From a virus (lineage: Duplodnaviria > Caudoviricetes), in IMG/VR virus record IMGVR_UViG_3300020397_000572, positions 1 to 48,678 of that record: a stretch of DNA of 48,678 nt; one strand, given 5' to 3'. The stretch's first letter is position 1. Each line of letters begins with the position of its first letter. Position numbers and translations under genes: made by a program. The notes under the pieces are model-generated. The model was not told the origin of the DNA and searched no databases. It saw only the letters and a list, made by a program, of their open reading frames with translations. Of the stretch, positions 6,446-41,095 are shown piece by piece.

Positions 6446-6799
6446 ATGGCAGATCGTAAAATCACACTTAATAAAACATTCACCGTTGACCTAGCTGGTG
6501 ACAGCATATGGGACAAGGAGAGAACCATCAACCCCAAGAGTGTTGAGGTCACAGGGATCACCCTAAGAGAGTCAGATTATGGTGATGGAGACGTCTACTG
6601 GGACGCAACGATCACACATGATGGTCCCTGGGAGATCTACACAGACACAGGGTTCACCAAAGGGATCATGGAATTGCTGGGTCCTGGTTGGGAGGGAGAC
6701 TTCTCAGAACAGGGAATGCAACAGGATGGTCTAGCCCATTTTGACATCCATTCTCACCCATATGAGATAAAAAATCCGCTAGAATTGGAGGCAAATTAG
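6446..6799 (+). CDS. Hypothetical protein (IYTDxGF...SEQGMQ family)
   Basis: GGAGGGCTAC RBS; WEIYTDTGF and FSEQGMQ motifs. Confidence 0.8.
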   Translation: MADRKITLNKTFTVDLAGDSIWDKERTINPKSVEVTGITLRESDYGDGDVYWDATITHDGPWEIYTDTGFTKGIMELLGPGWEGDFSEQGMQQDGLAHFDIHSHPYEIKNPLELEAN

Positions 6800-8178: not shown

Positions 8179-8197
8179 CATTTTGGAAAAGAAATGG

Positions 8198-8226
8198 TTG
8201 ACAGATCCGATCCAATGTGTTATTAT
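8198..8226 (+). promoter_or_regulatory. Early promoter
   Basis: TTGACA-17-TATTAT. Confidence 0.8.
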
Positions 8227-8270
8227 ATACAAACTAATGAATAGGCAATTTCTAAATTTAAGGAGGCAAT

Positions 8271-8612
8271 ATGTCTACAAATAAACTATATACCGTGGCA
8301 GGAACTTCAAGTTTCAACGGTAAAACTAAGGTAAGGTTTGCGAACGATTATGTGAGCAGATTCAAAATCCTAACCAAAAATGGTCACGAGAATATCGAGA
8401 TCATGGAACTTGATTCAGCGATGTCCAAAGGCGATATCTGTAAGTTCCTATCAACGCATGAGAAGTTTCAATCAGAAGCTCAGCAATCAGCGATCGCAGA
8501 GTTCGTGGTAAGAAACGTCAAGGTTGATACAGCACCAACACCAGCAATCAATGACATGGTCAAACAAGAGGCCGAGTCAGCTGAAGTTGAGACTGAGACT
8601 GAATCAGCATAA
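8271..8612 (+). CDS. Conserved hypothetical protein
   Basis: AAGGAGG RBS; YTVAGTS...KVRFAND motif. Confidence 0.8.
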   Translation: MSTNKLYTVAGTSSFNGKTKVRFANDYVSRFKILTKNGHENIEIMELDSAMSKGDICKFLSTHEKFQSEAQQSAIAEFVVRNVKVDTAPTPAINDMVKQEAESAEVETETESA

Positions 8613-8687
8613 ACTAGCACAAGAACCAAAGACGATTAAGACCTGGGGTTGAATTATAGCCCCAGGCATCGTTGCCCCACATCTTCC

Positions 8688-8716
8688 ATTATAACATATT
8701 TGGACAGCCCTGTCAA
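8688..8716 (-). promoter_or_regulatory. Minus-strand consensus promoter for a probable short RNA
   Basis: ggTTGACA-17-TATAAT; hairpin CCTGGGG...CCCCAGG about 20 nt downstream. Confidence 0.7.
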
Positions 8717-8749
8717 CCGTTTTCTTTTTACATTAATTTAATTTTTTGG

Positions 8750-8778
8750 TTGCATTTTGGAAAAAAGTATGCAATAAT
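8750..8778 (+). promoter_or_regulatory. Variant early promoter (TTGCAT -35)
   Basis: ggTTGCAT-17-AATAAT with TG extension, in the same position as the other early promoters. Confidence 0.5.
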
Positions 8779-8812
8779 AAAACATAATAAAAACTTAAAC
8801 AAAAGAGGGCAA

Positions 8813-9100
8813 ATGCAAATAACAGAAAAACAATTACAACACATGGTGTATTTTTTAACACACAAGGCAAACTATAAAGTTGGTTTGTTTGACGATGACA
8901 TTGATTTTAATGTTAACACTACAAGCGAATTGATTGACAATGCAAAATACTTGATTGACACTTTTTACAAAAAGGGCTTGACTTTTACAGAGGCGATGGA
9001 GTGTGTTACAGATTACAGATATGACGACGATTGCATAAATGAAGGCATACAAGAAATGTGGGACGACTATTGCAAGGAGAACAATATTTTTAAAGACTAG
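8813..9100 (+). CDS. Small acidic early protein (95 aa) on a TC/CC-free sense strand
   Basis: ORF 8672..9100; start at MQITEK after AAAAGAGGGCAA. Confidence 0.8.
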   Translation: MQITEKQLQHMVYFLTHKANYKVGLFDDDIDFNVNTTSELIDNAKYLIDTFYKKGLTFTEAMECVTDYRYDDDCINEGIQEMWDDYCKENNIFKD

Positions 9101-9101
9101 G

Positions 9102-9143
9102 GGTGTTGCAAAAATGCAACAGGTGTTGTAAAAATGCAACACC
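9102..9143. repeat. Tandem 20-bp repeat of the palindrome TGTTGYA-AAAA-TGCAACA
   Basis: GGTGTTGCAAAAATGCAACA then GGTGTTGTAAAAATGCAACA. Confidence 0.85.
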
Positions 9144-9163
9144 TATACCTCTAAAAAAAATGG

Positions 9164-9192
9164 TTGACATATAGCAAAAGAGGTGCTATATT
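9164..9192 (+). promoter_or_regulatory. Early promoter
   Basis: A-tract, TTGACA-17-TATATT. Confidence 0.8.
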
Positions 9193-9224
9193 AAGAGTAT
9201 AATAAGAAACAGAAAGAGGGCAAA

Positions 9225-9410
9225 ATGTTATCATTAATAGGTTTATTCGCAATCGCGTTCGTCATCGTCAAGTACTTCCCGGACATACTGATGTTCACAG
9301 TGAAGGCGGCGATCGTTCTAATCGGGCTTTACTTCCTGCTTGGAGCACTCCTTTGGATCTTTGGGGCTTCGATCGCACTAAACATCAATGGAGCATTGTT
9401 AGGAATTTAA
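9225..9410 (+). CDS. Small membrane protein
   Basis: GAGGGCA RBS; almost entirely hydrophobic. Confidence 0.75.
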   Translation: MLSLIGLFAIAFVIVKYFPDILMFTVKAAIVLIGLYFLLGALLWIFGASIALNINGALLGI

Positions 9411-9413
9411 TGG

Positions 9414-9442
9414 TTGACAAACATCTATTTTGGATGTATATT
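9414..9442 (+). promoter_or_regulatory. Early promoter
   Basis: TTGACA-17-TATATT. Confidence 0.8.
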
Positions 9443-9473
9443 AATAATATAAACTAAAAAAGCGAGGGCAAAA

Positions 9474-9740
9474 ATGAGTACAGATTTAAAAAGCAGAAAC
9501 AGAGGCACAGTAGGATTGACAAGATTCTGGGGTGGCGAGAACAGAGGAGCCTGTGTGCAGGTTACTACCGCTAGGGATTGGAGAAAAGAAGGCGACAGAT
9601 CTGCCGCAGACAAGTTCTTCAATCATGTTACATTAAGCAAAAGCGAGGCAGTTGCATTGGCGCAGGACTTGTTGGACTTTGCAGGCGATACCGCTGAACA
9701 AGAGTTCGACGATGCAGTATTGGAGGTACAGGGCAAATGA
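9474..9740 (+). CDS. Hypothetical protein (LTRFWGG...GxCVQVT family)
   Basis: GAGGGCA RBS; conserved-looking motif. Confidence 0.8.
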   Translation: MSTDLKSRNRGTVGLTRFWGGENRGACVQVTTARDWRKEGDRSAADKFFNHVTLSKSEAVALAQDLLDFAGDTAEQEFDDAVLEVQGK

Positions 9741-9928
9741 AGACAGCAATCACGTTCATAGGCTATCTTTTGGTAGCATTGGGTATCATGGCAATGGCCG
9801 GATCAGCAGGAGACTGTGATGGCAAGTGTGTGGAGAATGCCAACACCATGTTGGAGATGTTGACATTCGCAGGGCTTGGATTGGCCATGTTCCTATTTGG
9901 TTTCATGTTAATTTTACAGAAAAACTAA
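9737..9928 (+). CDS. Small two-TM protein with CDGKC loop
   Basis: Two hydrophobic helices; AGGGCA RBS. Confidence 0.75.
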   Translation: MKTAITFIGYLLVALGIMAMAGSAGDCDGKCVENANTMLEMLTFAGLGLAMFLFGFMLILQKN

Positions 9929-9936
9929 ATTAGGGG

Positions 9937-9965
9937 TTGACAGTTACAGTAAAAGATCATATACT
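9937..9965 (+). promoter_or_regulatory. Early promoter
   Basis: TTGACA-17-TATACT. Confidence 0.8.
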
Positions 9966-10017
9966 GTATACATAATAAGAAATTAGGCAATAACAACATT
10001 TTAAAAGAGAGGGCTAA

Positions 10018-11022
10018 ATGACACAACAAATCAAAATCAAATCCGGTAGTTACAAGATCAGAGGCAAGGACGTTGAACTTGCTGGCATGGTATTTCCAAT
10101 GGTGGAGCCATTCAAGGTTGGAGCCGCTGGTGGTTACGTAACTGTTGACGGCAAGGCGATTGCTGGATTCCCAGATCGTAACATCAAGATCAAGATTGAC
10201 TCAGCAGATGACTATGAGTTAACAAGAGCAAAAACTACTGTTAGAGAAGAGACAGATGAAGAGACCATCGACCGTCTCAGAGAAAGATTCCAAATCCTAG
10301 AAGACATGACTCGTGCTTGTAAGAAGGGCGACGTCAGGGCAATGATAGTTACAGGCCCTCCAGGAGTTGGCAAGTCGTTTGGTGTCGAGAAGGTTCTTGG
10401 CAAGCATGAGCTGATCGCTGAGCTGGGTGACAGACCTGCGAAGTACCAAGTTGTGAAGGGTGCTATGTCGGCGATTGGTTTATACTGTAAACTGTACAAC
10501 TATGCCGACAAGGATAACGTACTAGTTTTTGATGACTGTGATAGCATTCTTCAAGAAGACCTTTCACTAAACATATTGAAGGCCGCTCTTGACTCTAAGA
10601 AGACAAGACGTATCCATTGGAACACTGATTCATTCAAGCTAAGGAATGAGGGTGTGCCGGACAGTTTCGAGTTCAAGGGTAGTGCGATATTCATTACCAA
10701 CATCAAGTTTGACAACGTTAAGTCAAAGAAGATGAGAGATCATCTAGAAGCAATTGAGTCCAGATGTCACTACATCGATCTCACTATTGATACTGAGAGG
10801 GAGAAGATGCTACGTATCAAGCAGATAGTGAGCGATGGTATGTTGAAGGACTATCAGTTCTCAGAAGAAACAACTGAGAGAGTGATGGACTTCGTGGACA
10901 TCAACAAGAAGAACTTACGTGAACTGAGTTTACGTACAGTACTTAAAATCGCGGACTTGGCCAAAGCATTTCCAAGCAACTGGGAAGCTATGGCAGAGAA
11001 CACAGTACTACGTAGAGCCTAG
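10018..11022 (+). CDS. AAA+ ATPase
   Basis: Walker A GPPGVGKS, Walker B LVFDDCD, sensor FITN, Arg finger ESRC. Confidence 0.9.
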   Translation: MTQQIKIKSGSYKIRGKDVELAGMVFPMVEPFKVGAAGGYVTVDGKAIAGFPDRNIKIKIDSADDYELTRAKTTVREETDEETIDRLRERFQILEDMTRACKKGDVRAMIVTGPPGVGKSFGVEKVLGKHELIAELGDRPAKYQVVKGAMSAIGLYCKLYNYADKDNVLVFDDCDSILQEDLSLNILKAALDSKKTRRIHWNTDSFKLRNEGVPDSFEFKGSAIFITNIKFDNVKSKKMRDHLEAIESRCHYIDLTIDTEREKMLRIKQIVSDGMLKDYQFSEETTERVMDFVDINKKNLRELSLRTVLKIADLAKAFPSNWEAMAENTVLRRA

Positions 11023-14851: not shown

Positions 14852-15283
14852 CTATTGTGCGTCAGCTAGTAGTTTGGGAAGGATCTTCTTGGATTTGCCC
14901 AGCACACGGGTCTTGGCCACTGCATCAGCATTTGATACATCGCCACCCACCACGACAAGTGCAATCATGCCCATGCCTTTGTGCGGAGTGCATTGATACA
15001 AGTAAATGCCCGGCACTTCAAAAGTGAATGAGTATTCCTTGTTCATCTTGGATTTCTTGGGCTTGTCAAAGCCATCTGGACCAGCAATGAATTCAACATT
15101 GTGTCCTTTGCTTGTAGGCAACCATGTGATGGTGTCACCCACATCAATCTTGGCAACGTCGACGCTGTAAACCATTTTAGCACCATCGTCACGTTTGTTC
15201 AGCATATCAATAGTCATATCAGCCGCTGACACTGATCCTGATGTGGCAAACAACACAGCCACAGCAATTAAAAAATGTTTCAT
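14852..15283 (-). CDS. Pseudoazurin (blue copper protein)
   Basis: Signal peptide; copper ligands GHNV and YQCTPHKGMGM. Confidence 0.92.
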   Translation of the reverse strand: MKHFLIAVAVLFATSGSVSAADMTIDMLNKRDDGAKMVYSVDVAKIDVGDTITWLPTSKGHNVEFIAGPDGFDKPKKSKMNKEYSFTFEVPGIYLYQCTPHKGMGMIALVVVGGDVSNADAVAKTRVLGKSKKILPKLLADAQ

Positions 15284-17266: not shown

Positions 17267-17650
17267 ATGGCTTATTCAAAAGAGCTGTTAGATCACTATG
17301 AAAATCCTAGGAACGTTGGTTCGATGGATAAAGAAGACAACTCCGTTGGCACTGGACTAGTTGGTGCACCTGCCTGTGGAGATGTTATGAAACTACAAAT
17401 AAAAGTTAACGAGAAAGGTTGTATACATGACGCCAAGTTCAAGACGTTCGGCTGTGGCTCTGCTATTGCTTCTAGCTCTCTTGTTACTGAGTGGGTTAAA
17501 GGCAAAACATTGGGCGAAGCTGGGAAAATTAAGAATACAGAAATCGCAACAGAGTTGGCTCTTCCACCCGTAAAGATTCATTGTTCTGTTTTGGCAGAAG
17601 ATGCCATTAAGGCCGCTATTGCAGATTACGTTAAAAAGAACACGGTTTGA
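17267..17650 (+). CDS. iscU: Fe-S cluster scaffold protein IscU
   Basis: MAYS..DHYENPRNVG, GAPACGDVM, FGCGSAIASSS, LPPVKIHCSVLAEDAIKAA. Confidence 0.97.
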   Translation: MAYSKELLDHYENPRNVGSMDKEDNSVGTGLVGAPACGDVMKLQIKVNEKGCIHDAKFKTFGCGSAIASSSLVTEWVKGKTLGEAGKIKNTEIATELALPPVKIHCSVLAEDAIKAAIADYVKKNTV

Positions 17651-21662: not shown

Positions 21663-23099
21663 TTACTCCTCCTCTGAATTTAAGTTTTGTAAAAACGATC
21701 TTAGTTTTGTGCTGTCTGTTTCTGCCTTGATTGGCTTAACACTATCACCTTGATTAGGTTCCTTTGGAGTATCAGGTTCCTTATCAGTTGTTACACTTGT
21801 CCTTTTCAAGTTATCAAATATAGTTGATTTACGTTTATCAAATTCTTTGTATTCATCATCTTCTGCAAGATCTCTGATACGCAAACTGTCTATATCAAAT
21901 TCTAAATCTATCTTTGCACCAACACCACTAGAACTTCTAGTCTTCATAAGTTGTATTTGATATCTACCACGTTCACGCATAGCCCTACTTGTAAAGATAC
22001 CAATTACGTTATCAGCAGTTTGTATCTTACTCAAACCACCTGCAATATGCGAATGATCAAATTCTATTTCTTCAACACTTGCTCTATTCAACTGCGATGC
22101 AGTTACAAATATAATTTGTAGTTCCATTGCCAAGTTTCTAAGTTCTTCAGATACAAATTTATCTTTAACAAACAAATCACTTGGACTTACTTTTCTACTC
22201 AATGGCATCATCAAATCTAAATAATCAACTAGTATTACATCAATCTTCTTACCAGTTTTGATTTCATATTCCTTAATGAAACTTCTTATGTCATTTGCAT
22301 TCTTACCACTTGGCATATACTTAATCTGGAAAGCACCAGACTTCTTACCAACCAGTTTTACTTTCATCTCTACGCCATCTAAATCTCTAAATATTTCTCT
22401 GCTTGGAACATCAGTCATCATACTATCTAATCTCATTGCAACTAAATTTTCACTCAATTCAAATGTTAGATACACAACGTTCATGCCATTCAATGCCCAA
22501 TTGACACCTAAGTTTGCTAGGAATAAACTTTTACCTGCACCACTACCACCTGCAAAAATATTAAGTTCACCTTTGTTGAATCCTCCAAACAGTTTCTTAT
22601 CCAAGCTCTCCCAACCTGTGCTTACTTGGCCATTGTTATCTTTCAATGCAGAAAGTCTGCCCTTAGGATCATCAAAGTAATCAATACCTAAATCTTTTTG
22701 TAATCCTATTTGTACTGCGTCTTTGATCTTAGATTCAACTGGACCATACTCGCCTTTTTCTAGCAAGTCAGCACTTTCAAGTATTGCACGTTCTAATGCT
22801 TTGTGTCTACTAAAAGTTTCAAAGTCACTCAACAACCAATCATAATGTTGTTCATTAAGTCCTGTTGGAATAGCTAGTTTTACTTGTGGACAATTACTGT
22901 TTACTATTTGTTCTGTAGGAAGTGTGTTGTGTTCTGCAACAAAGTTCTTAATAAATTCTGCTGTTGGTTTGAGTCTTCTATCAAAACTTTCAGGATCAAA
23001 TATTGCTTGACAACGCACAAAAGTTTGTGCATCGCTCAACATAATTTCCAAATACGTTTTCTGTATTTCAAATCCGTAATCAGTGTTTTGTTTCATCAT
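21663..23099 (-). CDS. gp41: Replicative DNA helicase, T4 gp41/DnaB family
   Basis: Walker A GGSGAGKS, TFELSE, VDYLDLM, TASQLNR, KTR. Confidence 0.93.
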   Translation of the reverse strand: MMKQNTDYGFEIQKTYLEIMLSDAQTFVRCQAIFDPESFDRRLKPTAEFIKNFVAEHNTLPTEQIVNSNCPQVKLAIPTGLNEQHYDWLLSDFETFSRHKALERAILESADLLEKGEYGPVESKIKDAVQIGLQKDLGIDYFDDPKGRLSALKDNNGQVSTGWESLDKKLFGGFNKGELNIFAGGSGAGKSLFLANLGVNWALNGMNVVYLTFELSENLVAMRLDSMMTDVPSREIFRDLDGVEMKVKLVGKKSGAFQIKYMPSGKNANDIRSFIKEYEIKTGKKIDVILVDYLDLMMPLSRKVSPSDLFVKDKFVSEELRNLAMELQIIFVTASQLNRASVEEIEFDHSHIAGGLSKIQTADNVIGIFTSRAMRERGRYQIQLMKTRSSSGVGAKIDLEFDIDSLRIRDLAEDDEYKEFDKRKSTIFDNLKRTSVTTDKEPDTPKEPNQGDSVKPIKAETDSTKLRSFLQNLNSEEE

Positions 23100-24314: not shown

Positions 24315-24610
24315 TACTTACGTTTCTCCTCGATCTTTGTTTCATATTTTGTTTTAAAGTAGTCGTGTGTAACATAAGATGCAGTAATGAATCCTGCTAA
24401 GAATACTAACAAATAAATCACAGTGGTGATTAAATTCTTTTTGAAACCACCCTTGCCTTTGTTCTTTTTGTATGCTCTCCACATCCACCAAAAACCTGCA
24501 ATAGTTAAAATAATACCTATTGCAATTACCCAAGGATTATTTGCGATTGCAACTCCTGAGGCACCAAAGATTAAAAACAATAATCCATTTATATAACACA
24601 TTGGACACAT
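24314..24610 (-). CDS. Three-TM membrane protein
   Basis: MCPMC start; hydrophobic helices. Confidence 0.7.
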   Translation of the reverse strand: MCPMCYINGLLFLIFGASGVAIANNPWVIAIGIILTIAGFWWMWRAYKKNKGKGGFKKNLITTVIYLLVFLAGFITASYVTHDYFKTKYETKIEEKRK

Positions 24611-25203
24611 TACTTACGTTTCTCCTCAATCTTATCTGCAAGACCGTATGCTATTGTTTCTTCAGCACTTAAAAAATAATCACGATCCATGTCTTTCATG
24701 AAGTCGTCATAAGTCTTACCTGCTGTGTTGTGTTTCACGTACAGCTCTGTAAGTTTTTCTTTTAGATACTGTATTTCTTTGTAACGTATTTCAATATCAC
24801 TTGCCATACCTTTTGCTCCACCACTTGGTTGATGGATCATTGTTCTTGCATTAGGTAAAAGTATACGTTTGCCTGGTGCTCCTGCTTGAGCAAGGAATGA
24901 ACCCATACTACAAGCCTGTCCTAGCACTATGGTTCTTATATCACACTTGACATATTGCATTGTATCATAAATGCTCATGCCACTTGTAATTATTCCGCCA
25001 GGACTGTTAATGTAAAAATTAATATCCTTTTCTGGATTCTCACTTTCTAAGAAAAGCATCTGTGCAACAACTATGTTTGCACTATGATCTTCAACAGGAC
25101 CATTCAACATCACAATTCTATCTTTCAATAGACGACTGTAAATGTCATATGCTCTTTCTCCTCTATTGGTAGATTCGACTACCATTGGTATTAAGTTACT
25201 CAT
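24610..25203 (-). CDS. clpP: ATP-dependent Clp protease proteolytic subunit
   Basis: [39 protein letters not shown]. Confidence 0.96.
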
Positions 25204-27490: not shown

Positions 27491-28276
27491 CTAGTTTCTT
27501 ACTAAAACCTTATCAATTGTTCCGGAAGTTTTTACGTATCTAACTCTCAAATGATTGAACACACCATTAAAATTAATATAGTTTGGTTGTGTGGTATTGG
27601 TTAGGTTTACTTTTGCTATGTCACCAAATTTGGTTGATCCAGTTACAGTATTATCTAATGTTCCTTCAATAAAAACTTCACCTACAAAGTCTGTGCTATA
27701 AATGGCCGCAGTATGTAGTGCTTCATTTCCATTTATTGCAGGTTGTCCACTTATTGTTTCACTTGTAAAGATATCAGTGTTGACTCCTGTTTCAGTAAAT
27801 GTTTTAATTGAATATGTATCAGTAGGTCCTGGAAAAGCATCGCCCTTGATCTCAATAGTTCCTTTTGCGTTATAATGTGTGTTAGCATAGGTCAGTGTTT
27901 TTGCACTATCAGATGTAGCAACCAAGTATACATTGTAGGCGGCGAACTGTGACTTCAAGCTGAGAAGGTCATTCTCTGTGATTGTTACAGTAAACTGTCC
28001 TTTAAAAGAAGGCGTTGATGTTTCTTTGATTGTGCCTTCACGTTCAATGATTTGTGTATTGTTTTCGTCAAACATTACAAAATAAGGCTTGTAAGTATTT
28101 AAAATACTAACAGGCTTCTGGTCTGGGTTTTTAATCTCAAAGGTAAGCACATTGTCAATACCTCTGTAGACTGTCATATTTCTTGCGTACACTGGTCTAT
28201 ACTCCGTTATGTTGTTAGTCAGATCTGCTATCAATACTGACTTATTGGTTGCTAAATATCGATATGTTAGTTGCAT
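27491..28276 (-). CDS. Beta-rich, probably structural protein
   Basis: TAAATA upstream; YRGIDNVLTFEIKNPDQKP; Thr-rich. Confidence 0.6.
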   Translation of the reverse strand: MQLTYRYLATNKSVLIADLTNNITEYRPVYARNMTVYRGIDNVLTFEIKNPDQKPVSILNTYKPYFVMFDENNTQIIEREGTIKETSTPSFKGQFTVTITENDLLSLKSQFAAYNVYLVATSDSAKTLTYANTHYNAKGTIEIKGDAFPGPTDTYSIKTFTETGVNTDIFTSETISGQPAINGNEALHTAAIYSTDFVGEVFIEGTLDNTVTGSTKFGDIAKVNLTNTTQPNYINFNGVFNHLRVRYVKTSGTIDKVLVRN

Positions 28277-28805: not shown

Positions 28806-29210
28806 TCATATAGTTTTTGCTATTGTTATCATTCTTTCTACTAGACTACCAAAGCCCACTTGCCTTTGCATAGTAAGTAAGTTTCTTATACCCAATCCTT
28901 CGAAACTTTCTAATGTGAGATGTGCAATTTCACTTCTGTGTTCACCATTGAGTAAGTCAACCAAAACTTTTGCAGTACCTTTTGTAATCCAGGCATCTGC
29001 ATCATGTTTGTATGACATGGTGCCGTCTTTGTTCATGTGTCCTACCACCCATAAATTACTAGCACAACCTCTAATTTTATTTTCATCTATCTTATCTTTT
29101 TCATCTAATGGCGGAACTTCTCTTGCTATGTCAATCAGATATTGAAGTCTGTCATGCCCTTCTAAGGGAGCCATCTCTTCACCACGTGCTTTAATTTTGT
29201 CTAGTATCAT
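28806..29210 (-). CDS. sufE: SufE sulfur-acceptor protein
   Basis: RLQYLID, IRGCASNLW, DADAWITKG, LTMQRQVG. Confidence 0.9.
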   Translation of the reverse strand: MILDKIKARGEEMAPLEGHDRLQYLIDIAREVPPLDEKDKIDENKIRGCASNLWVVGHMNKDGTMSYKHDADAWITKGTAKVLVDLLNGEHRSEIAHLTLESFEGLGIRNLLTMQRQVGFGSLVERMITIAKTI

Positions 29211-39113: not shown

Positions 39114-39959
39114 TTATAGCACAGAAGTCAAGTGTTTTAGTGGTTCTCCACCAGCAATTTCCTCCAATGTCCATTCTGTATGTGCTATGTCATTAAGCCA
39201 TTGTGTTCTGTCAGGACGTAAAGGATCATTGATGGTATCATAATTTGGATTGCCTACTTCATAGGCTAGACTTGCTTGGCTAACAAATACAGGCACACCA
39301 TTGATTACTGAATGTGTAGCAGGGTTACTGCTATGATTGATTACTGCATAAGCACCACTACAACTGAAGTCAAAGTCGTCATATGTGTCTTGTACTTGCA
39401 CAGGATTTTGTCGATAAACATTTTTAAAATCTTCTTCCAAGTTGGTAACAGGAAATCTTGGGTGAGGTCTCCAAATTATATCTCTGTCTGTGTGTTCTCT
39501 TATTTTTCTGATTTGTTCACTTACCCAACTCGACATACTTGGATTGTTACGCCATTGATGTGAACGTTCATGTTGTCCTACTATAACTATGCTGTCTCCG
39601 TTGTTGTCCCAAGGTTTCAGTTCAAGTCCTAATTTTTTAGCTCTTGTGTTGTCATTCCCTTTTGGACCAAAGTATGCTTCTCGATTAATTCCGCCAACAC
39701 CAACTTTCCAAGTGGTACCACGTATTAATCCACCAACTTCTAGTACAATTATTTTTTTATTGTGTGCATGGAAATCGTCCCATACTTTTTTGTTAGGAGC
39801 CATTCTACCATTCCAAAGAACGCTCCAAATAACACCAACGTCACAGTCGTAAGTATTATCAACGACCACATGACCATTACTGCTAAGACTATCAGCAAAG
39901 GCGTCAAATACTGGTTTGCTATTTTGTGCACCATAATCTCTAAATAAACTAAACTTCAT
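39114..39959 (-). CDS. Capsule polysaccharide biosynthesis-like GT-B protein
   Basis: IWRPHP, INHSSNPA, GVPVFV, WTLEEI; paralog of the 42660 and 43592 genes. Confidence 0.7.
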   Translation of the reverse strand: MKFSLFRDYGAQNSKPVFDAFADSLSSNGHVVVDNTYDCDVGVIWSVLWNGRMAPNKKVWDDFHAHNKKIIVLEVGGLIRGTTWKVGVGGINREAYFGPKGNDNTRAKKLGLELKPWDNNGDSIVIVGQHERSHQWRNNPSMSSWVSEQIRKIREHTDRDIIWRPHPRFPVTNLEEDFKNVYRQNPVQVQDTYDDFDFSCSGAYAVINHSSNPATHSVINGVPVFVSQASLAYEVGNPNYDTINDPLRPDRTQWLNDIAHTEWTLEEIAGGEPLKHLTSVL

Positions 39960-41095
39960 GATAGAAGGGTTACTATTTTCCCTGCAAGTCCTTCGAACCA
40001 AGCCTCGTCGTGACCTCTTGTTGTTTCAGCGGCTGTGCCTATTCTTATACCACTTGTCTCTACAAATGATCTTGGATCATTAGGTACCCCATTCTTGTTT
40101 ACAGTTATGCCATTTTCTTCTAATAGATCAGCGGCTTCTTTACCTGACCATTTTGTATCACTTAGATCCAATAGTAGTATATGACTATCAGTTCCGTCAG
40201 TTAATAATTTGTATCCACTTTCCTTAAACACTCTTGCCATTGCCTGTGCATTAGCAACTACCTTGGCAGAATAATCCTTGAAATCATCCGTGTTTGCTTC
40301 GATGAATGCCTGTGCCTTTGCGGCAATAATATTCATCAATGGTCCACCTTGTGTGCCTGGAAATATTGCACTATTAATTTTTTTTGTGTAGTCTGGATTG
40401 TTCCATAGTATGATTCCGCCTCTAGGACCTCTCAAAGTTTTATGTGTTGTACTTGTTACAAAGTCTGCATAAGGCACTGGACTTGGATAGGCATTACCGG
40501 CAATCAATCCTGAGTAGTGTGCCATGTCTACCAATAAGTATGCACCTACCTTATCTGCTATGTGTCTAAACATTTTAAAATCAATAGCTCTTGGATATGC
40601 ACTTGCTCCTGCAATAATCATTTTTGGTCTTATCTCTTGTGCTTTTGCCATTACTTCTGGGTAACTTAACCAACCTTTTTCATCAACACCATAATGATGT
40701 GCTTCATATACTTTGCCTGATATGTTGACAGGAGCACCATGGCTTAAATGACCTCCACTTGCAAGATCCATGCCTAGTATTTTATCACCTGGTTTTAAAA
40801 AAGCAAGATAAATTGCTGTGTTGGCATTTGCTCCACAATGTGGTTGCACGTTTGCAAATTCACAGCCATATAATTCTTTCAGTTGATCTATTGCAAGTTG
40901 TTCAATGCTGTCCATGTGTTCACAACCATTATAGTATCTTTTGCCTGGATATCCTTCAGCATACTTGTTTGTAAACACCGAACCCGCTAGTTTCATTACG
41001 TCTTGTGATGCAAAGTTTTCACTTGCAATTAATTCTATAGTAGACGTTTGCCTATCTACTTCTTTATCTAATATTTCAAAAACTCTTTTATCCAT
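39956..41095 (-). CDS. glyA: Serine hydroxymethyltransferase
   Basis: LIASEN, NKYAEGYPGKRYY, GGHLSHG, TTHKTLRGPRGG. Confidence 0.97.
   Translation of the reverse strand: MDKRVFEILDKEVDRQTSTIELIASENFASQDVMKLAGSVFTNKYAEGYPGKRYYNGCEHMDSIEQLAIDQLKELYGCEFANVQPHCGANANTAIYLAFLKPGDKILGMDLASGGHLSHGAPVNISGKVYEAHHYGVDEKGWLSYPEVMAKAQEIRPKMIIAGASAYPRAIDFKMFRHIADKVGAYLLVDMAHYSGLIAGNAYPSPVPYADFVTSTTHKTLRGPRGGIILWNNPDYTKKINSAIFPGTQGGPLMNIIAAKAQAFIEANTDDFKDYSAKVVANAQAMARVFKESGYKLLTDGTDSHILLLDLSDTKWSGKEAADLLEENGITVNKNGVPNDPRSFVETSGIRIGTAAETTRGHDEAWFEGLAGKIVTLLS

Follow-up and report, generated by a model that had tools for sequence, protein, structure and literature searches.

Transcription units without GA or GG on the template strand in a group of marine jumbo phages, and a possible link to guanine modification

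The window analysed here, a 48,678-nt (48.7-kb) stretch of phage DNA, contains an early transcription unit whose message strand has neither TC nor CC (together termed YC), which leaves its template strand without the complementary steps, GA and GG. This YC-free run, 8724..9142 on the + strand, spans a promoter, a leader, an ORF and 3' palindromes. Similar runs, referred to as islands, recur in relatives of the source phage, where the avoidance of YC is under selection, is absolute and acts site by site, and where the ban follows the direction of transcription.

Direct counting in the 417 nt from 8725 to 9141 gave 51 cytosines and no TC or CC at all, exactly as the original prediction had it from a hand count of about 51. 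The maximal run measures 419 nt, and it stands out in a scan of the + strand of the 48.7-kb window, where the runner-up reaches 105 nt. The chance of finding no YC in the unit is 2.0e-12 from base composition, in line with the earlier estimate of about 1e-12, and 2.2e-9 when the protein is fixed and codons are drawn from the window's other early genes. The codon usage noted from the outset also holds, namely, the ORF has no Pro, its single Ser is AGC, Phe is TTT in 6/6 cases and Ile is ATC in 0/7, whereas the adjacent early genes are rich in TTC (68, against 40 TTT) and ATC (79/167). An assembly artefact is ruled out for this run: two metagenome contigs (L007 and L008) encode a 100% identical protein, each within an identical 419-nt YC-free run, and a contig from DNA run X7, possibly the source sample, agrees over 8801-10514 with one difference.

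The unit opens with a predicted sigma-70-type promoter at 8750..8778 (+), recognised as a consensus match with a predicted start (TTGCAT-17-AATAAT, with a TG extension). Its -35 box, 8750-8755, was correctly read as TTGCAT in the original prediction. TTGACA itself contains neither TC nor CC in the sense orientation, so the replacement is not in itself part of the YC ban; it removes one GA from the non-template strand, and the box is free of GA and GG on both strands. A ribosome-binding word, GAGGGC, recognised by sequence and repeat analysis and common to the early genes, lies at 8805..8810 (+) and recurs in the early region, for example at 9216-9222 and 9466-9471. The acidic 95-aa ORF follows at 8813..9100 (+), with 20 D+E and 9 K+R, and then two tandem palindromes of the form TGTTGY-N6-RCAACA (9104-9121 and 9124-9141, in an element at 9102..9143 assigned to neither strand; hairpin z -4.75). 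The ban stops at the closing CC of the second palindrome.

The surroundings of the unit are YC-normal. Just beyond the 5' boundary, a divergent promoter of perfect consensus (TTGACA-17-TATAAT; 8688..8716, -) contains TC and CC, and on the 3' side the following early promoter (TTGACA; 9164..9192, +) lies outside the ban and drives a YC-normal gene at 9225-9410 (22 YC/40 C). Further upstream, the gene at 6446..6799 (+) is also YC-normal (39 YC/75 C). Within 8641-8716 (-), the leftward promoter leads into a strong hairpin at 8642-8666 (z -3.9); its transcript would then run antisense to the gene at 8271-8612, as a possible small or antisense RNA.

An AAA-like gene at 10018..11022 (+) anchors the window to long relatives and, at 46% identity, to its nearest cultured phages by this gene, the Pseudomonas phages PA5oct and Paride. 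Related contigs imply genomes of about 350 kb (57.6 kb corresponds to 16% completeness, and one complete relative measures 357.6 kb) and carry T4-like capsid, portal and terminase genes, and the sequencing runs containing the region are all marine. The source is an uncultured marine jumbo myovirus, a distant relative of PA5oct and Paride. The window also holds host-like metabolic genes, for an azurin-family copper protein (14852-15283), IscU (17267-17650), ClpP (24610-25203), SufE (28806-29210) and serine hydroxymethyltransferase (39956-41095). Sequencing runs of marine phages were used as assembled contigs. Those from RNA runs cover the flanks and leave the gene body at 8924-9087 uncovered, one of them skips 8730-9102, and others show a different sequence past the promoter; they say nothing either way on expression of the gene.

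The ban is conserved in divergent homologues of the 95-aa protein. We fetched 86 loci (6 viral, and 80 kept of 143 metagenomic), in which 66 distinct gene matches of 40-100% identity contain 7 YC/2,623 C, against about 0.4 YC per C in the flanks. Thus, the avoidance seen in the window is kept down to 40% identity, and only two of the matches have any YC at all. The worse of these, with 6 YC/58 C, lies at 1574-1887 of L058, has no obvious ribosome-binding word and sits in YC-normal surroundings; it has the appearance of a unit on its way out of the island state.

Most relatives have YC-free runs longer than that of the window; these extend to as much as 2,475 nt and cover several genes that have a promoter each. 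Through the AAA gene we reached 80 more loci, which yielded islands holding other genes, and a depleted segment was found in 115 of the 167 sequences examined. The overall count of 135 YC/19,764 C in islands is circular, as islands are defined by low YC; the gene-based counts are not. Island genes form 43 protein clusters, some singletons among which may be spurious ORFs, and their products are mostly small and acidic, with 63% strongly acidic against 24% of flanking ORFs. The gene in the slot occupied here by the 95-aa ORF is swapped or dropped among strains, and homologues of the 6446-6799 product (up to 47% identical), YC-normal in the window, sit in YC-free islands of other phages. The ban therefore belongs to the transcription unit and not to the protein. 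Accordingly, what had been framed as a single gene stands as regards the ban, but is better described as a whole class of transcription units, whose products fall into at least 43 clusters.

The 95-aa protein itself has 101 homologues in marine metagenomes, with a Pro content of 0.05% and an invariant RYDDDCINEG, and no match in cultured phages. It is predicted to fold as a four-helix bundle (pLDDT 79.6), whose best structural matches are unrelated generic helical bundles (Z 5.8, rmsd 3.6, 84 aligned residues). It has no Pfam family (one weak HSDR_N_2 match, E 0.008) and no PHROG; a profile search retrieved nine representatives, all of its own family; and neither it nor the 6446-6799 protein has a match in the atlas. 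Informative PHROGs were likewise lacking for 22 other island or neighbouring proteins. Its position and charge suggest a role in early host take-over or counter-defence; the counter-factor or DNA mimic envisaged in the original prediction would be candidate forms of such a role, to which the family and fold comparisons lend no support.

Composition distinguishes selection from mutation. In island-bearing loci, YC per C is bimodal over 705 distinct short ORFs, with a main mode at 0.3-0.45 and a spike at zero: 161 ORFs have exactly 0 YC and 27 fall between 0 and 0.1. Pro makes up 3.1% of residues in 530 flanking ORFs but 0.1% in 243 island ORFs, which hold Ser at 4.3% by means of AGY codons (42 versus 23 per 1000 codons). 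A mutational sink, in which, without any selection, heavily transcribed genes lose YC to YT on their exposed non-template strand through a deaminase or UV, would agree with islands being C-poor (0.153 versus 0.198) and TT-rich. However, purine-C steps go up in islands (0.153 versus 0.125 per nt), Ser is recoded to AGY, and the ATC, ACC and GCC shares shift to A-ending codons as well; moreover, boundaries are sharp, adjoining strong early genes are normal, and template-strand dipyrimidines are still plentiful, with 72 AA and 28 GA retained on the sense strand of the window unit. The codon redistribution in island ORFs thus largely refutes a C-to-T sink, which we find hardly credible. The avoidance of UV photoproducts was rejected as well.

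The dependence on the direction of transcription is seen in a minus-strand gene of L102, where the + strand is free of GA and GG for 485 nt and which has its own TTGCAT promoter. We compared 33 island-first promoters with 256 control promoters, with predicted start sites and with relatives that are not fully independent. YC/C is 4/48 versus 249/552 at -55..-36 and 7/67 versus 387/891 in the spacer, and is normal in island-first promoters at -75..-56 (63/118; controls 0.47); the ban sets in some 55 bp before the predicted transcript. When one representative per cluster was taken (14 clusters), the figures were 10/67 and 426/966. Island promoters also lose GA and GG from the non-template strand, with 2/66 versus 61/265 at -12..-1 and 3/22 versus 205/342 at 0..+9, and TTGCAW replaces TTGACN in 16/49 of them against 8/227 controls (clustered); in gene bodies, non-template GA and GG barely differ (0.51 in islands versus 0.575). 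This loss on the other strand, upstream DNA included, points to a ban that acts on DNA and not on RNA. The promoter constraint looks looser than the coding one, as ORFs hold the minority of the exceptions inside islands (39/66 lie outside them). The spacers of island-first promoters have TTTGG in 20/33 cases and the reverse, CCAAA, in 0/33 (26 and 11 of 314 in controls); the window promoter has TTTTGG, in this sole orientation.

On the 3' side, the ban usually ends no more than tens of bases away from the last stop codon. The palindrome TGTTGY-N6-RCAACA marks this end in 12 of 23 distinct occurrences, and is also present in the island-free genome G008. It is found in both orientations, with no U tail, just ahead of early promoters and at the 3' limits of islands, for instance at L043 2720-2757, L063 2022-2039 and L190 3391-3408, and is a candidate terminator or operator.

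Relatives of the phage encode a probable 7-deazaguanine pathway for the modification of guanine. FolE, searched with PF01227, is present in G007, G009 and G010 (three of the four marine contigs) and in G006; the island-bearing G007, G009 and G010 have FolE, QueE, a DpdL-like protein, a probable glycosyltransferase, assigned from a weak Pfam hint, and a 508-aa probable DpdA. The same cluster occurs in the closest long relative, G005 (AAA 88%), which was scanned for islands over 60 of its 268 kb, and the G006 contig ends inside it. QueD lies outside the cluster in G005 and G010, and QueD and QueE of G010 were assigned by PHROGs. The DpdL signature, given as LxxxHRHxF (PMC10516641), reads LGIPHRHIFHF in G010 and LATPHRHIFHF in G008. 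QueC (PF06508) was found in none of the five genomes searched, three of them incomplete, and a TGT profile (PF01702) detected nothing in the relatives, where the cluster was located via FolE. The 508-aa protein, whose gene adjoins that of the DpdL-like protein, contains what we take to be TGT motifs (GDSGGFQ, DIP, QG, HFLG and FDC); it has no match in Pfam, PHROGs or PDB sequences, nor in a profile comparison with the DpdA of iggy, and its homologue in Vibrio phage 2.275.O adjoins annotated QueF, queuosine and FolE genes. From these motifs and this context, it is probably a DpdA. A block of probable glycosyltransferase, DpdL-like, 178-aa and probable DpdA genes (L216 1956-6138, equivalent to G010 77956-82138; L200 1515-5533, from G008) is common to Paride and, minus the 178-aa gene, to Phosso, and is a candidate source of a sugar-bearing 7-deazaguanine. 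The cluster is absent from the 48.7-kb window, and five further island-bearing contigs gave no DpdA-like match, which is uninformative as they are only 23-33% complete.

PA5oct and Paride carry the same cluster (DpdA-like protein, 37%). PA5oct DNA is reported to resist five restriction enzymes, which the authors of that work read as modified G in GA and/or GG (PMC12191111), a motif that is the exact complement of the TC and CC banned from island messages. Against this reading, the site of one of the five, ApaLI, presumably has neither GA nor GG, and five Mom-like enzymes are described for this phage as well (PMC7824862). The genome of Paride has no gene-length islands, but contains 11 runs free of GA, GG, TC and CC where at least 10 such steps were expected, compared with none in 20 local shuffles, and none in Vibrio 2.275.O, G006, G008, iggy or the window. 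These patches include the tandem TTGCAA-17-TATAAT promoters of the tRNA cluster, and patches in PA5oct occur at the starts of the highly transcribed ncRNA001 and ncRNA002, the bodies of which are undepleted. Patches of this kind, of 60-220 nt, are dispersed, several of them at promoters, and have words such as TAACGCA in common; they are found in Paride (OR805295.1) at 136250-136409, 110598-110746, 138615-138832, 185405-185509 and 148340-148482, among others (L236-L240), and in PA5oct (L274) at 8186-8271, 21901-21967 and 27594-27698. The promoter patches imply that, in this clade, something acts on GA and GG in double-stranded promoter DNA.

The pathway is at most necessary, and not sufficient, for islands, as the complete G008 (DpdA-like protein 77% to that of G010) and Phosso carry the cluster with no island or promoter patch, and with no island of any other di- or trinucleotide, genome-wide rare words aside. 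Runs with at least 15 expected steps are absent from RaK2, which has no FolE or cluster match, and from Vibrio D479, which has FolE, QueE and a DpdL-like protein but no DpdA-like match. CAjan and iggy, with mapped modification at GA/GGC and GA, respectively, have no islands either, which makes CAjan, the example first put forward, a poor model. In CAjan (NC_028776.1) we observed a TC-free run of 242 nt at 39243-39484, where 17.7 were expected, and at 53678-53737 a run of 60 nt without any of the four steps, where 15.9 were expected. In Vibrio 2.275.O (MG592671.1), which also has the DpdA-like homologue and QueF/FolE genes, a small gene at 96141-96461 (NVP2275O_152) has 3 YC/46 C and may be an independent weak case.

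We propose, with about an even chance of being right, that these units keep their template strand unmodifiable so that host RNA polymerase reads them first. The phage would replace G at GA and GG, on both strands, with a 7-deazaguanine derivative, as suggested by the cluster and by the PA5oct digest; the adduct would be bulky, judging from the probable glycosyltransferase, and may hinder promoter binding when on either strand and elongation when on the template strand. Units needed first from the incoming virion DNA would have lost every template GA and GG, and their small, mostly acidic products may act at the very start of infection, in host take-over or counter-defence. Bulkier 7-substituents on 7-deazaguanine are reported to block the E. 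coli and B. subtilis RNA polymerases in vitro, with plain and methyl 7-deazaguanine tolerated, and the inhibition described there is at initiation, with no elongation stall (PMC4838386). The promoter signal agrees well with this, the gene-body ban less so, and the latter would need some further adduct or lesion. Any block must also be partial or short-lived, because early genes of PA5oct that are YC-normal are reported to be transcribed by 5 min (PMC7318152), and the unit in the window lies between strong promoters that are YC-normal. The most specific version of this scheme, in which a bulky, probably sugar-bearing modification at every GA and GG silences the virion DNA, and a proline-free bootstrap island is read first and makes the proteins that lift or bypass the block, is tentative and on balance doubtful. 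A phage guanine modification at GA and GG was the first candidate of the original prediction, and it has gained support from the FolE, QueD, QueE, DpdL-like and probable DpdA genes of the clade, from the reading of the PA5oct digest, and from a ban that affects both strands of promoter DNA predicted not to be transcribed.

The same modification could matter through a host reader, that is, a defence glycosylase or modification-dependent nuclease that removes the modified G or nicks the DNA there. A target-free strand would then provide an intact template without a double-strand break, and inhibitors of the defence would still be expressed. Such a reader would explain a per-site selection on one strand and the patchy distribution of islands, which are missing from G008 and Phosso. 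Island proteins also turn over fast, with 43 clusters, and are strongly acidic in excess, and the slot gene is swapped or lost among strains; Dag1-type glycosylases are described as excising 7-deazaguanine derivatives and nicking DNA (10.1101/2025.10.29.685425), and END nucleases as targeting PA5oct (PMC12191111). By itself, however, it leaves unexplained the loss of non-template GA and GG around the -35 and -10 boxes, the TTGCAW swap, and the short two-strand patches of Paride before undepleted RNAs. In addition, the known END inhibitor of PA5oct, gp52, is YC-normal, and none of the island proteins could be placed in a known family of inhibitors by Pfam, PHROG or fold comparison. We hold a host reader to be unlikely; the two DNA-level readings, polymerase block and host repair or defence reader, are together probable.

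If the ban concerned RNA instead, transcripts with no 5'-YC might escape premature termination by Rho, each subunit of which binds such a step. The primary-site cleft of Rho binds precisely the pair that is banned from the RNA strand (PMC6144790), Rho avoidance is reported to shape coding-strand composition in some bacteria (PMC13323073), YC-free ORFs are slightly lower in pyrimidine (0.40 versus 0.43) and in excess C (6 versus 8), and the coding region obeys the ban more strictly than the promoter does. Nevertheless, rut sites are described as needing 60-80 nt, several spaced YC and a C>G bias (PMC6144790), so that a lone YC should be tolerable, and yet 161 of the 705 ORFs have none and Pro has been given up. 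The median YC-normal ORF already lacks a (YC-N9-13)x4 motif and has G>C; T content, described as favouring Rho (PMC13323073), is higher in islands (0.25 versus 0.22), with T-rich windows more and not less frequent in YC-free ORFs; and the YC that are tolerated are not preferentially paired (18/66, versus 207/388 for RC). Nor is the depletion confined to the transcribed RNA, as judged by predicted start sites: it extends upstream, at -55..-12, and Rho gives no account of this, of the promoter loss of GA and GG, or of the two-strand patches of Paride. Escape from Rho is, consequently, quite improbable. We give slightly less credit still to a toxin, either a host or phage endoribonuclease or an RNA modifier, that hits single-stranded UC and CC and to which island messages would be immune. 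An absolute, per-site selection on the message strand would suit it, and CmdTAC is described as a defence toxin that modifies mRNA at a dinucleotide target; as with Rho, promoter depletion and two-strand loss tell against it, and no YC-specific enzyme was found. The RNase, deaminase or ADP-ribosyltransferase acting at YC that was initially envisaged is less favoured. The target of CmdT is reportedly GA, and avoidance of this type was rejected, as the sense strand of the window unit keeps its 28 GA.

Phage guanine modifications have been studied as nuclease shields, and a transcription cost is mentioned as a possibility, in that such modifications might block sigma factors, which phages are said to escape via AT-rich promoters (PMC6884629). 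An absolute, strand-specific ban bounded by the transcription unit would be genomic evidence of such a cost, or of hosts striking back at modified bases, and is open to testing in the cultured PA5oct and Paride. The type of DNA modification is thus a known one, and the genomic accommodation to it appears new: in the openly accessible papers that were searched, early transcription units free of a motif are nowhere described. If the bootstrap scheme is true, DNA hypermodification would time the infection programme like a clock. Islands without the motif would then show, from sequence only, which motif an uncultured phage modifies and which of its genes are expressed first. Furthermore, more than 40 clusters of small uncharacterised proteins are flagged as candidates for the earliest steps of host take-over or counter-defence in an abundant group of marine phages.

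Among known systems, Ocr of T7 is a small acidic phage protein that mimics DNA; the window protein is also small, acidic, helical and early, but has no sequence or fold match to it, its best structural matches being the unrelated bundles mentioned above. Phage genomes that avoid restriction sites, and messages that escape MazF by being ACA-less, have been selected to lose the word that a sequence-specific enzyme targets. Islands likewise lose such a word, but here it has two letters, is lost from one strand of single units at the cost of Pro, and its writer is likely the phage's own. Rho sites and Rho-avoiding purine bias (PMC6144790, PMC13323073) share with islands the recognition of YC on RNA, yet Rho avoidance as described there is graded and compositional and powerless on promoter DNA, whereas islands obey an absolute dinucleotide ban. 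With the phage DpdA systems, described for CAjan at GA/GGC (PMC7544227), for iggy at GA (PMC10484667) and as subfamilies (PMC10516641), the marine relatives share FolE, QueD, QueE, a DpdL-like protein and a probable DpdA; they differ in having no QueC in the five genomes searched and a probable glycosyltransferase in the cluster, and CAjan and iggy differ from them in having no motif-free islands. The closest parallel in motif is PA5oct, where the steps proposed to be modified (PMC12191111) are those banned from the template in marine islands. The patches of the Wroclawvirus phages PA5oct and Paride come with the same clade-level cluster, the same four dinucleotides and the same -35 change, TTGCAW for TTGACA. 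They are, however, short (60-220 nt), two-stranded and mostly intergenic, whereas in marine islands a one-strand ban runs through whole genes, and two-strand loss is partial and found at promoters.
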